IMG/VR virus record: IMGVR_UViG_3300045988_143943
DNA: 40,879 nucleotides
Strand: one strand, 5' to 3'
Source of the DNA: a virus
In this document: in pieces, positions 1 through 2,214 of the stretch
Numbering within the stretch: the first letter of the stretch is position 1
Layout of the letters: the number at the start of each line of letters is the position of its first letter
Notes under the pieces: generated by a model
What the model saw: only the letters and a program-made list of their open reading frames with translations
What the model was told of the DNA's origin: nothing
Database searches by the model: none
Made by a program: the position numbers and the translations under genes

Positions 1-160
1 ATGTCAACAACAAAAATTGCAGATTTAATAAATCCAGAAGTAATGGCAGATATGATTTCAGCCAAAATAGAAAAAAAATTAGTGGTTACACCATTTGCTA
101 AAATAGATACTACATTAGTAGGGCAACCAGGAAATACTATAACAGTTCCACAATATGCGT
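1..160 (+). CDS. Major capsid protein, exon 1 (53 codons plus first base of codon 54)
   Basis: ATG with RBS AGGAAGGTGA (seen at 40787-40796 in the circular copy), directly after the scaffold gene. Encodes [53 protein letters not shown]. The unspliced frame hits TAA at 160-162. Continues in frame at 1397 after intron removal. Confidence 0.8.
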
Positions 161-1396
161 AAAAATATGCGCCTTTACATAGTGATATGTATTGCAAACC
201 CTTTTAATTGCTGGAAACTCCTAAAGAGTTCATCTCACTTTAGGACAATCAGCAGCGAAGATTCATTAAATATATAACAATTCCTATTTATTGATATATT
301 GTCAAATTTATGATAAACTATAAATAGAGGTGATAATATGTCAAAGAGAAAAACTACAGAAGAATTTAAAAATGAAGTATATGACAAATTTGGAGACTCT
401 ATAGAAATTTTAGGTGAATACAAGACAAACAGAGATAAAATATTAGTTAAGTTTAAAGAATGCGGACACGAAGGGTATAAAGCACCTTCTAAGATATTAG
501 CTGGGCAAAGATGTGCTAAATGCGCTGGTAAAAGAATAGCTAAATCTAAAACTAAAACAACAGAACAATTTAAAAAAGACTTAACTAAAAACAACATTAA
601 CTATATAGAAGTTATTAGTGAGTATAAAGGAGTAAAGTATAAAATAGAAGTATTGAATAAAAAGTGTAACCATGTATATAGTGCGTTACCTGGCAATATT
701 TTAAGAGGTGCTGGATGCCCTGTATGCCATGGGTTTAAAGATACTAATAAATTTATTGAACAAATAAATCATAAATATCCTGAAGAATATGAAATAATAG
801 GAGAATATATAAATAACAAAACTCCTATATTAGTAAGACATAAATGCGGTTATGAATGGGAAGTAATACCAAAAGATTTAATGAGAGATATAAGATGTCC
901 TAAATGCATAATGTCAAAAGGAGAATTATTTATAAGTAAATATTTAGAAGAAAATAAAATAGATTTTAAACCTCAGTATAGATTTAAAGAATGTAGAGAT
1001 GTGCTAGAATTACCTTTCGATTTTATGGTTAATATAAAAGGGCAATTAAAGCTAATTGAATTTGATGGTAGCCAACATTTTGGCGAAAAATCTTCTAAAT
1101 ATCGAACTCCAAAAGTAAAAATACATGATGAAATAAAAAATAAATTTTGCAAAGATAATAATATTCCTTTATTAAGAATACCTTATTGGTGGTTAAGAAA
1201 TGATAGAATTATCAAGGAATTAGATAAATTTATATTTAATGAATAACGTTCAACGACTAGCCGAAAGGCGTACACCCAAGTGGGTGGAAATGGAGGGCAA
1301 CTCAAGGAGTTGATGATATAGTCTAATCTATATAGTAATATATAGCAGTTCATAAGAGAACGATACAAGATTAACGACCTTGTATGAATGTAAATG
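161..1396 (+). mobile_element. Group I self-splicing intron with internal homing endonuclease ORF
   Basis: The 5' exon ends in U160 and the intron ends in G1396. A short P1 is possible: GCGU 157-160 pairs with GCGC 169-172, including a U160-G169 wobble. Conserved core elements occur in the canonical order. P-like AATTGCTGGAAA 206-217. Q-like AATCAGCAGC 247-256. R-like GTTCAACGACTAG 1248-1260. S-like GATATAGTC 1315-1323. TTGCTG/CAGCAG can pair as P4 and GACTA/TAGTC as P7. Several short hairpins, some with GNRA-type loops (e.g. GCC-GAAA-GGC 1260-1269). The ORF sits between Q and R. Confidence 0.85.
338..1246 (+). CDS. Intron-encoded homing endonuclease: three zinc-ribbon repeats plus C-terminal Vsr-like / PD-(D/E)XK-type nuclease domain
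   Basis: 302 aa with its own RBS (GAGGTGA). Three ~60-aa repeats each carry a C-x-H/Y ... C-x-x-C motif: CGHEGY..CAKC, CNHVY..CPVC, CGYEW..CPKC. The C-terminus (LPFDFMV..LIEFDGSQHF..IHDEIK..IPLLRIPYW) resembles Vsr / DUF559-like endonuclease folds, as in EDxHD-type homing endonucleases. Confidence 0.7.
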   Translation: MSKRKTTEEFKNEVYDKFGDSIEILGEYKTNRDKILVKFKECGHEGYKAPSKILAGQRCAKCAGKRIAKSKTKTTEQFKKDLTKNNINYIEVISEYKGVKYKIEVLNKKCNHVYSALPGNILRGAGCPVCHGFKDTNKFIEQINHKYPEEYEIIGEYINNKTPILVRHKCGYEWEVIPKDLMRDIRCPKCIMSKGELFISKYLEENKIDFKPQYRFKECRDVLELPFDFMVNIKGQLKLIEFDGSQHFGEKSSKYRTPKVKIHDEIKNKFCKDNNIPLLRIPYWWLRNDRIIKELDKFIFNE

Positions 1397-2214
1397 ATAT
1401 AGGAGATGCAGTAGATGTAGCAGAAGGTGTTGCAGCAGAAACAGTAAAATTAACTACTACTTCAACAACTGCTACAGTAAAAAAAGCAATGAAGGCAGTA
1501 GAACTTACAGATGAAGCTGTGTTAAGTGGTTATGGCAATCCTGTAGGAGAAACAAATAATCAAATAGCAAAATCAATAGCTTCTAAAGTAGATAATGATG
1601 CAATAGATGCTTTATTTAATGCGCAATTAATTTATGATGGTTCAAGCGGAACTATAAATTATGACGGAATAGTTGATGCAGTAGATGTATTTGATGAAGA
1701 ATTGAATACAGAAAAAGCTATGTTTGTAAACCCTAAACAGGTTACACAATTAAGAAAAGATAGCAACTTTATATCTGCTGACAAATATACTGGTCAAGTA
1801 GTTATGAATGGAGAAATAGGTAAAATAGCTAATTGTAGAATTGTAGCAACTAAAAAAGCTAAATTAGTAGATGAGTGGTACTCTTTCTGTGAAAGTGGAA
1901 CAAATAGTGCAGTACAAGTAGCATCTGGAAACTTGGCAACAATACAAGCTACATTGCCAAATGCAAAAGAAGGTGATTTTGTATTAAAATCAACTACTCC
2001 AGTATACTTTAATCCAATTATAAAACTTAATAATGATGCTGAAACAGAAGAAGATACTGCTGCTTTAACTGTATATTTAAAAAGAGATACAAATGTAGAA
2101 ACAGATAGAGTATCTTTAGCAAGAAAAACTGATATATCTGCTGACAAACACTATACTGCAGTCTTATCAAATGCAGCTAAAGTTGTTTTAGCTAAATTTA
2201 AATCTAAAAAATAG
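1397..2214 (+). CDS. Major capsid protein, exon 2 (HK97-fold-like capsid)
   Basis: The track ORF 1384-2214 has no RBS. It starts inside a conserved capsid segment ([10 protein letters not shown]...LTDEAVLSGYGNPVGE). Joining T160 to AT1397-1398 gives codon TAT and the sequence ...[16 protein letters not shown]. The spliced CDS is 978 nt (325 aa). Confidence 0.8.

Follow-up and report, generated by a model that had tools for sequence, protein, structure and literature searches.

A mobile group I intron encoding a homing endonuclease very probably interrupts the sole major capsid gene of a temperate siphovirus genome

How a phage could produce its major capsid protein from a gene that ends after 53 codons and is taken up again only behind a long insert is the question raised by the IMG/VR virus record IMGVR_UViG_3300045988_143943, a stretch of 40,879 nucleotides that was analysed as a whole and is referred to below as the window. 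The answer proposed here, and held with high confidence, is that a mobile group I intron, which occupies positions 161–1396 and carries a homing endonuclease gene in the loop of its helix P6, interrupts the sole major capsid gene of this genome. The basis of this interpretation is the anatomy of the sequence, a match to the group I covariance model, covariation within the predicted helices, homology to an intron that interrupts the same codon in Lactococcus phage Tuc2009, and the pattern observed in the population of related phages.

The upstream part of the gene is an open reading frame (ORF) at 1–162, which encodes 53 amino acids and ends with an in-frame TAA at 160–162 that overlaps the predicted 5' splice site. 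Capsid-like sequence resumes in an ORF at 1384–2214, which encodes 276 amino acids, starts with ATG and has no Shine-Dalgarno sequence upstream of this codon. The same coordinates had been reported in a first-pass annotation of the window, which also proposed that joining T160 to A1397 would restore a single frame, and both claims hold. When positions 1–160 and 1397–2214 are joined, the frame is kept, both exons are in frame and free of stops, and the resulting 978 nucleotides encode 325 amino acids; the 30-mer predicted across the joined exons reads TTCCACAATATGCGT^ATATAGGAGATGCAG (here and below, the caret marks the junction). The joined product matched the NCBIfam model TIGR04387 (N4-gp56 family major capsid protein) over its full length with 166.5 bits (residues 3–323, profile positions 3–324 of 324; curated cut-off 60 bits), PHROG 544 (“major head protein”) with an E-value of 2.3e-77 over residues 2–324, and also the Pfam family Phage_capsid_4. 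It is colinear with the experimentally defined major head protein (MHP) of phage TP901-1, with the junction located inside the best conserved block. A second capsid gene was not found in the window. A further contig, L002 (MT839195; L-numbers denote loci in related contigs), was considered as a second split capsid gene and rejected, since both of its pieces are in one frame and the segment between them is a divergent insertion domain, not an intron.

In other phages the sequence across the predicted junction is continuous. A tblastn search recovered at least 80% of the joined product in one uninterrupted piece in 289 phage records, a comparison with intron-less capsids being one that the first-pass annotation had suggested, and 70 sites of viral contigs that lack the intron encode the unbroken motif P-Q-Y-A-Y-I-G-D-A. 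The continuous sequence of intron-less alleles is ...CAATATGCGT^ATATAGG..., and the closest intron-less site, which reads ...CCACAATATGCGT^ATATAGGTGATGC..., equals the joined exons of the window at 54 of 60 nucleotides. Based on these unbroken sites, the window corresponds to such an allele plus 1,236 inserted bases. The insertion point as such is ambiguous by one nucleotide, A161 being identical to A1397; the junctions were therefore set between 160 and 161 and between 1396 and 1397 according to the group I rule that the 5' exon ends in U and the intron in the so-called omega-G.

The inserted segment can be folded into the conserved architecture of a group I ribozyme (Table 1), in which all listed helices are formed in the window by standard or G-U pairs. 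The 5' exon ends in a U that takes part in a U-G wobble in P1, the last intron base is a G, the P3–P8 core contains the P3/P7 pseudoknot, and the elements P, Q, R and S occur in this order. U160, G1396 and the GCGU/GCGC pairing of P1 had already been recognised in the first-pass annotation, and the positions it gave for the four elements, the complementarity that generates P4 and P7, and the location of the endonuclease ORF in the P6 region were likewise confirmed. The presence of P7.1 and P7.2 between P7 and the 3' strand of P3 is a mark of subgroup IA (Michel and Westhof). Along with these two helices the window has the P9.1 and P9.2 extensions, which are features of subgroup IA2; this label was derived from the helix layout and from the label applied to relatives of the intron in PMC2504315, not from a formal subgroup classifier.

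Searches with covariance models gave a result that differed between search modes. A default scan of the window with Rfam at the gathering threshold (50 bits for the group I model RF00028) returned no match, an outcome that the first-pass annotation had named as speaking against a group I intron. In sensitive mode, applied to positions 100–1500, RF00028 matched in two halves, one at 209–302 (21.3 bits; model positions 60–138, the P4–P6 region) and one at 1178–1345 (41.7 bits, E = 6.6e-9), the true match of the latter beginning at the R element. The 954-nucleotide ORF-bearing loop lies between the two halves, and the intron was missed by the default scan because this large loop opens P6 and because of the speed filters. 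Shorter alleles of the intron were found in IMG/VR contigs of close relatives, with lengths of 328 nucleotides (L035, 2661–2988), 279 nucleotides (L044, L045, L054 and L055; 1295–1573 in L045) and 278 nucleotides (L042, 1296–1573). The first of these keeps a 19-codon stub of the endonuclease gene. The L042 intron is composed of the first 116 bases (161–276) and the last 166 bases (1231–1396) of the window intron with four bases of microhomology, and this identity at both ends identifies it as the window intron minus one clean deletion of 958 nucleotides inside the P6 loop. It matched RF00028 over the whole model (1–253 of 253) with 112.8 bits (E = 1.2e-30), the same score being obtained for L045; the 50-bit threshold is thus exceeded by the ribozyme core, whereas the uninterrupted sequence of the window, with its two half matches, stays below it. 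The ORF-less alleles have kept every core helix, and their P6 stem is a plain hairpin. As the gathering mode missed these alleles, too, the negative default scans are best regarded as filter artefacts. Sensitive mode lost most RF00028 matches when applied to the whole window or to 11 loci together, and short stretches gave them. Routine scans will thus miss this AT-rich intron family even where no ORF is present. No additional intron of the kind was detected when the window was searched for them.

The predicted structure was further assessed by covariation. Eight full cores were aligned by MAFFT, namely those of the window, L035, Tuc2009, L019 and L022 (introns in tail genes of viral contigs), Enterococcus phage EF1, Bacillus phage LY2 and a Clostridioides phage; ORF loops were cut out where present, P7 was written as a pseudoknot, and alignments with the pairing partners slid by one to three columns as well as 500 shuffles served as controls. 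Over the eight cores, 91.5% of the cells were paired, compared to 35–45% with slid partners, changes on both sides were found in 25 of the 50 pairs, and none of the 500 shuffles reached any of these measures. For the long-range helix P3 the paired fraction was 93.8%, with compensatory changes in five of six pairs. An alignment of 11 3' domains, to which four introns of Gram-negative phages had been added, was 92.1% paired (33–47% when slid) with 23 of 29 pairs compensatory; here P9 was paired throughout (100%; five of seven pairs compensatory) and P9.2 nearly so (96%; seven of seven). These pair counts are conservative, since MAFFT misplaces Tuc2009 in P7 and CdES in P7.2. Folding region by region revealed that every relative forms an equivalent hairpin with a different sequence. 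A direct comparison of L035 with the window detected three compensatory double changes in P2 (UACAUA/UAUGUA to UAGGCA/UGCCUA) and changes in P3 that keep the pairing through G-U. Covariation thus supports the predicted helices P1, P4 and P7 as well as P2, P3, P5, P6, P7.1, P7.2, P8, P9, P9.1, P9.2 and P10.

In the proposed mechanism, a late transcript that runs from the scaffold gene into the capsid gene would fold into an IA2-type ribozyme, whose guide sequence GCGC (169–172) would pair with the end of exon 1, GCGU (157–160), by way of the U-G wobble. Free guanosine bound at P7 would attack after U160, G1396 would take the guanosine site, and P10 (165–168/1397–1400) would align exon 2 for the joining of the exons, the outcome being the 978-nucleotide frame for the 325-amino-acid capsid protein. 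Where relatives that lack the intron co-infect, the endonuclease would cleave their capsid alleles close to the insertion site (examples of intron-less target sequences are ...CCACAATATGCGTATATAGGTGATGC... and GAGATACAATTACAGTCCCACAATATGCGTATATAGGTGATGCGGTAGATGTAGCAGAAG), and repair templated by the intron-bearing copy would pass on the intron along with adjacent exon sequence. The stop codon at the 5' splice site (U^AA) has a counterpart in Tuc2009 (AGCU^AA), and ribosomes that translate the unspliced RNA would come to a halt on P1. In the case of T4 td, translation and splicing are known to be linked.

The product of the endonuclease gene matched the Pfam families DUF4379 (a treble-clef zinc finger; 4.9e-10) and CapR (3e-6) and PHROG 559, 9084 and 7140, DUF723 is among the precomputed matches of its homologues, and its C-terminal 113 residues had weak Pfam matches to DUF5889, DUF2726 and RAP. 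Alignments of 30–33 homologues revealed nine invariant cysteines in three CxH...CxxC modules, and E196, D228, E241, D243, H247 and K267 were invariant as well. The AlphaFold (AF2) model, which has a mean predicted local distance difference test score of 88.2, consists of three repeats of about 60 residues with the order strand-strand-strand-helix, followed by an alpha/beta domain. The top Foldseek matches in the PDB were all PD-(D/E)XK nucleases (Bax1, TnsA, R2 endonuclease and Hjc), and the search also returned the catalytic domain of I-Bth0305I (3r3p) with a probability of 0.99 and a template modelling (TM) score of 0.65, normalised to the target, and the Vsr-like protein 3hrl with a TM score of 0.68. 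As modelled, the protein is composed of three zinc-ribbon modules of the CapR/DUF4379/DUF723-like kind and a C-terminal Vsr/EDxHD-like PD-(D/E)XK domain (residues ~190–300). A Vsr-type motif, ..PFDF.. followed by ..IEFDGSQH.., is present in the ORF; we take ..LPFDF.. and ..IEFDGSQH.. to correspond to ..RPDF.. and ..FTHGCFWH.. of Escherichia coli Vsr, and the invariant residues presumably correspond one by one to those of the EDxHD motif. To our knowledge, no member of the zinc-ribbon branch has been tested biochemically.

The HNH label that is attached to PHROG 559 and to orf38 in RefSeq NC_002703 was rejected, as the fold is that of PD-(D/E)XK nucleases. No HNH family was found among the Pfam matches of the endonuclease at E ≤0.1, nor at E ≤10 for its C-terminal domain. 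Sequence or profile searches of the PDB with the endonuclease yielded only noise (Myb, rubredoxin) and did not find I-Bth0305I. Homologues with 55% identity to the endonuclease are encoded in L010 (2492–3427) and L011 with neither a recognisable group I core nor a capsid gene alongside; these may be free-standing copies or reside in a different kind of intron.

Another way to look at the mobility of the element is by comparing the divergence of its parts. In a comparison of eight related contigs with the window, the mean divergence was 0% in the 3' core and 0.1% in the endonuclease gene. For exon 1 it amounted to 2.9% and for consecutive stretches of exon 2 to 1.8%, 5.3% and 5.5%, increasing with distance, whereas the scaffold gene had diverged by 8.2% and the downstream region by 10.3%; no differences occurred within 82 nucleotides upstream or 49 nucleotides downstream of the insertion site. 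This pattern would be expected of recent homing with co-conversion of the flanks, of which it is suggestive only. All capsids of more than 93% identity carry the intron in some form, and full, remnant-bearing and ORF-less forms occur side by side, in keeping with the later stages of a homing cycle. The exact endonuclease protein was detected in 212 blocks of a public assembly collection, mostly on contigs of ~40 kb and also within contigs of 0.2–1.7 Mb, and the element is present in several samples. Members of the capsid family occur as intron-less prophages in the genomes of Clostridium, Ruminococcus and other Clostridia. The insertion target is unchanged between Lactococcus phages and phages of this Clostridia-associated capsid family, whose capsids are 36% identical.

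A second group I intron was observed in the same capsid gene of close relatives, between V88 and E89. It is located at 1678–2508 in L045 and also occurs in L009, L060, L042, L044, L054 and L055. Its 5' exon ends with ..GCGGU and the intron with ..AAAUUG, it contains an ORF for a GIY-YIG-type endonuclease of 151 amino acids (1786–2241 in L045), and RF00028 matched it partially (L045 2350–2463, 18.9 bits). The window is devoid of this second intron and has an empty site at ~1496–1505, which makes it a potential homing target.

Several points weigh against the interpretation of the insert as a spliced and mobile intron. P1 has just 4 base pairs and P10 likewise just 4, compared to 6 (CUAUAU/AUAUAG) in the commoner allele of 1,237 nucleotides; in one piece, the window stays below the Rfam gathering score, its two halves reaching 41.7 and 21.3 bits; and the eight contigs compared for divergence are not independent samples. 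Moreover, an empty allele of the same phage lineage was not found, the nearest empty alleles being 72–78% identical, so that it is solely the divergence pattern that points to current mobility. Splicing and homing are strongly implied by the sequence and remain predictions. The inferred status of splicing and the short P1 and P10 of the window allele would also suit a decayed, splicing-dead intron or some other insertion that has turned the capsid gene into a pseudogene of a defective prophage, and some relatives have lost the endonuclease ORF, so the element does decay. Such an explanation is nevertheless considered very unlikely, because the ribozyme core is intact, with a score of 112.8 bits in the absence of the ORF loop, and because the ORF-less alleles have retained all core helices. 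The compensatory changes in P2 and the wobble-preserving changes in P3 of L035 also contradict a dead ribozyme, as do the open exon frames, the otherwise complete genome and the occurrence of the element on many full-length contigs of ~40 kb from several samples.

The possibility that the capsid is made as separate polypeptides of 53 and 276 amino acids is even harder to credit. Automatic gene calls on every related public contig list exactly these two products, and the downstream ORF does begin with an ATG. However, this codon, which has no Shine-Dalgarno sequence, belongs to the part of the ribozyme that makes up P9.2 and the 3' tail, and homologues lack the first five residues that follow from it (MNVND), which the intron encodes. 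The frame is moreover broken within the most conserved motif (..P.Y.YIGDA.DVAEG), and this motif runs through uninterrupted in the 289 phage records and at the 70 viral-contig sites mentioned above. Least probable of all, with a chance close to negligible, is an intervening element of another kind, such as a group II intron, an intein, a translational bypass or a free-standing endonuclease gene. Endonucleases of this family are also found in group II introns and between genes (PMC12350094), and the homologues in L010 and L011 would fit this picture, but the four conserved elements, the helices from P1 to P10 and the RF00028 match are all found in the window. Read in the frame of exon 1, the insert contains 68 stop codons, which excludes an intein, and its length of 1,236 nucleotides excludes a translational bypass; as regards a group II intron, neither an ORF for a reverse transcriptase nor a match to a group II family was reported. 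A mobile group I intron that splits the sole major capsid gene thus remains the strongly preferred interpretation.

Table 1. Features of the capsid locus of the window, with helices as predicted for the intron RNA.
Feature	Position	Strand	Remarks
Capsid exon 1	1–160	+	53 codons plus T160, the first base of the split Tyr codon; residues 1–53 located by tblastn at 1–159
Group I intron (predicted)	161–1396	+	1,236 nucleotides, IA2-like, ends in omega-G1396
P1	157–160/169–172	+	Exon GCGU with internal guide sequence GCGC; G-C, C-G, G-C and U160-G169 wobble at the 5' splice site
P10	165–168/1397–1400	+	AUAU with the first four exon-2 bases AUAU
P2	176–181/186–191	+	Hairpin
P3	199–204/1292–1297	+	CCCUUU/GGAGGG; long-range, across the ORF
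P element	206–217	+	AATTGCTGGAAA
P4	209–214/249–254	+	Formed by the P and Q elements; encloses P5
P5	219–226/238–245	+	
Q element	247–256	+	AATCAGCAGC
P6	261–274/1231–1244	+	Perfect 14-base-pair helix closing the 954-nucleotide loop; 3' strand formed by the last ORF codons
Endonuclease Shine-Dalgarno sequence	327–333	+	GAGGTGA
Homing endonuclease gene	338–1246	+	302 amino acids; in the P6 loop
R element	1248–1260	+	GTTCAACGACTAG
P7	1255–1259/1319–1323	+	
P7.1	1260–1262/1267–1269	+	
P7.2	1273–1277/1282–1286	+	Four of five pairs compensatory
P8	1298–1303/1307–1312	+	
S element	1315–1323	+	GATATAGTC
P9	1328–1334/1339–1345	+	
P9.1	1348–1351/1358–1361	+	
P9.2	1363–1369/1379–1385	+	3' tail then runs to G1396
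Capsid exon 2	1397–2214	+	Last two bases of the Tyr codon, 271 more codons and the stop
Scaffolding protein gene	40174–40785	+	Pfam Phage_scaffold, 1.3e-40
Capsid Shine-Dalgarno sequence	40788–40796	+	GGAAGGTGA; after the scaffold ORF and before the capsid ATG via the circular join

Positions 1–79 of the window are identical to 40801–40879, and this direct overlap of 79 nucleotides at both ends indicates that the contig represents a complete phage genome, circular or circularly permuted, that was opened exactly at the capsid ATG. The good ribosome-binding site that the first-pass annotation had assigned to the capsid gene, following the scaffold gene, does exist, but at the end of the window, not at its start (Table 1). 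Besides the capsid gene, the window contains genes for a large terminase, an SPP1-type portal, a Mu F-like protein, the scaffold, tail proteins, an amidase and a serine recombinase, and it is a complete, circularly permuted genome of a temperate siphovirus. The temperate lifestyle is indicated by the large serine recombinase (Resolvase and Recombinase domains; 20689–22197, minus strand) and fits the occurrence of the same element inside bacterial contigs of 0.2–1.7 Mb.

Seventeen identical bases (AGGTGATAATATGTCAA) are common to the start regions of the capsid gene (40790–40800 plus 1–6) and the endonuclease gene (327–343), which may be due to chance or to the borrowing of a strong start signal; the corresponding regions of Tuc2009 have no comparable likeness. 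Scans of positions 1–2500 for promoters and terminators gave counts at chance level, and the sole terminator-like hairpin in this region (2257–2277; AAGGGAGAAAGATTCTCCCTT followed by a T run) is located within an ORF at 2225–2473 just past the capsid gene.

In a wider perspective, the lineage and its relatives might capture the whole homing cycle in a single capsid gene, with intron 1 in three forms, a second, GIY-YIG-encoding intron in some genomes, a biochemically uncharacterised zinc-ribbon/Vsr-like branch of endonucleases and a conserved target. This view is put forward tentatively, at slightly less than an even chance. Intron 1 itself appears to be fixed, its forms being full (1,236 or 1,237 nucleotides), stub-bearing (328 nucleotides) and cleanly ORF-less (278 or 279 nucleotides). 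If the view is correct, with an active enzyme that mainly recognises the conserved 3'-exon sequence ATATNGGNGATGC, the endonuclease would become the first characterised member of its branch and would come with a natural series of targets. Irrespective of this view, the locus illustrates how a homing endonuclease whose target is a conserved motif of the capsid can pass from one phage to an unrelated one, and the natural ORF-less alleles of 278 nucleotides offer ready-made minimal ribozymes. Capsid-based phage classification and protein clustering will mishandle this widespread group of gut phages, because the gene is called as two fragments and the intron is invisible to default Rfam scans. What is known of group I introns as such is left unchanged. 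This kind of intron is already annotated in Tuc2009, of whose capsid intron the window provides a second, independent case at the same codon in a distant host clade.

The best blastn match of positions 1–2400 in the phage collection was Tuc2009 (AF109874), aligned to 1127–1563 of the window, a stretch that begins at the ORF end, includes the 3' core and reaches into exon 2. The Tuc2009 record lists orf37 (major structural protein 4, mp4), orf38 (“group I intron”) and orf39 (“linked with orf37 after excision of group I intron”), an annotated arrangement that bears out the group I interpretation first made for the window, where splicing is predicted from the sequence. The capsid intron of Tuc2009 is cited in PMC3706429 and listed in PMC2504315 among the BLASTN relatives of the IA2 intron TMP-IVS2. 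The two capsid genes are homologous (TP901-1 MHP/N4-gp56 family), and the Tyr codon of ..YIGDA.. is split as T^AT in both, exon 1 of Tuc2009 ending with ...GCA TGG AGC T and exon 2 beginning with AT ATT GGG GAT. In both introns the ORF occupies the P6 loop, its last codons form the 3' strand of P6, and the 3' core contains P7.1, P7.2, P9, P9.1 and P9.2; the ORF products are 47% identical over 301 amino acids. In contrast, the Tuc2009 intron has 1,313 nucleotides with a much larger P7.1/P7.2 insertion, its P1 comprises 6 base pairs (GGAGCU/GGUUCC, also with a U-G wobble) and its P10 7 base pairs (CCAAUAU/AUAUUGG) compared to 4 each in the window, and its P6 is a different helix of 10 base pairs at the same place. 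The helix sequences differ through compensatory changes, and the capsids, one from a Lactococcus phage and the other from a family found in Clostridia prophages, are ~36% identical.

Other related phage introns share with the window the P, Q, R and S elements, P7.1 and P7.2 between P7 and the 3' strand of P3, and an ORF looped out of a peripheral stem. The 3' domain of the window is ~70–80% identical to introns of Staphylococcus, Enterococcus, Bacillus, Clostridioides, Escherichia, Pseudomonas and Aeromonas phages, whereas these introns reside in genes for tape measure, portal and DNA polymerase or in nrd and td, and mostly encode HNH, GIY-YIG or no endonucleases. A major capsid gene that is broken by an intron with an endonuclease gene is also known from mycobacteriophage LittleE, in which splicing was proven by reverse transcription PCR and N-terminal sequencing (PMC3706429), which proves that splicing can be essential to a phage for making the protein it needs in the largest amount. 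LittleE differs from the window in having an unrelated capsid family and an unrelated intron; that intron has 819 bp, carries an HNH gene on the opposite strand and is of a type that its authors considered uncertain. I-Bth0305I (PDB 3R3P) resembles the window endonuclease in its C-terminal PD-(D/E)XK/Vsr-like fold of ~100 amino acids, but has NUMOD and helix-turn-helix domains, not zinc ribbons, at its N-terminus and is encoded in P5 of a recA intron (PMC3239194). The closest counterpart in domain architecture is found in the large, previously unrecognised EDxHD outgroup described in 2025 (PMC12350094), whose members combine three to five CapR/DUF4379/DUF723-like domains with an EDxHD/Vsr-like domain, the same architecture as predicted for the endonuclease of the window.

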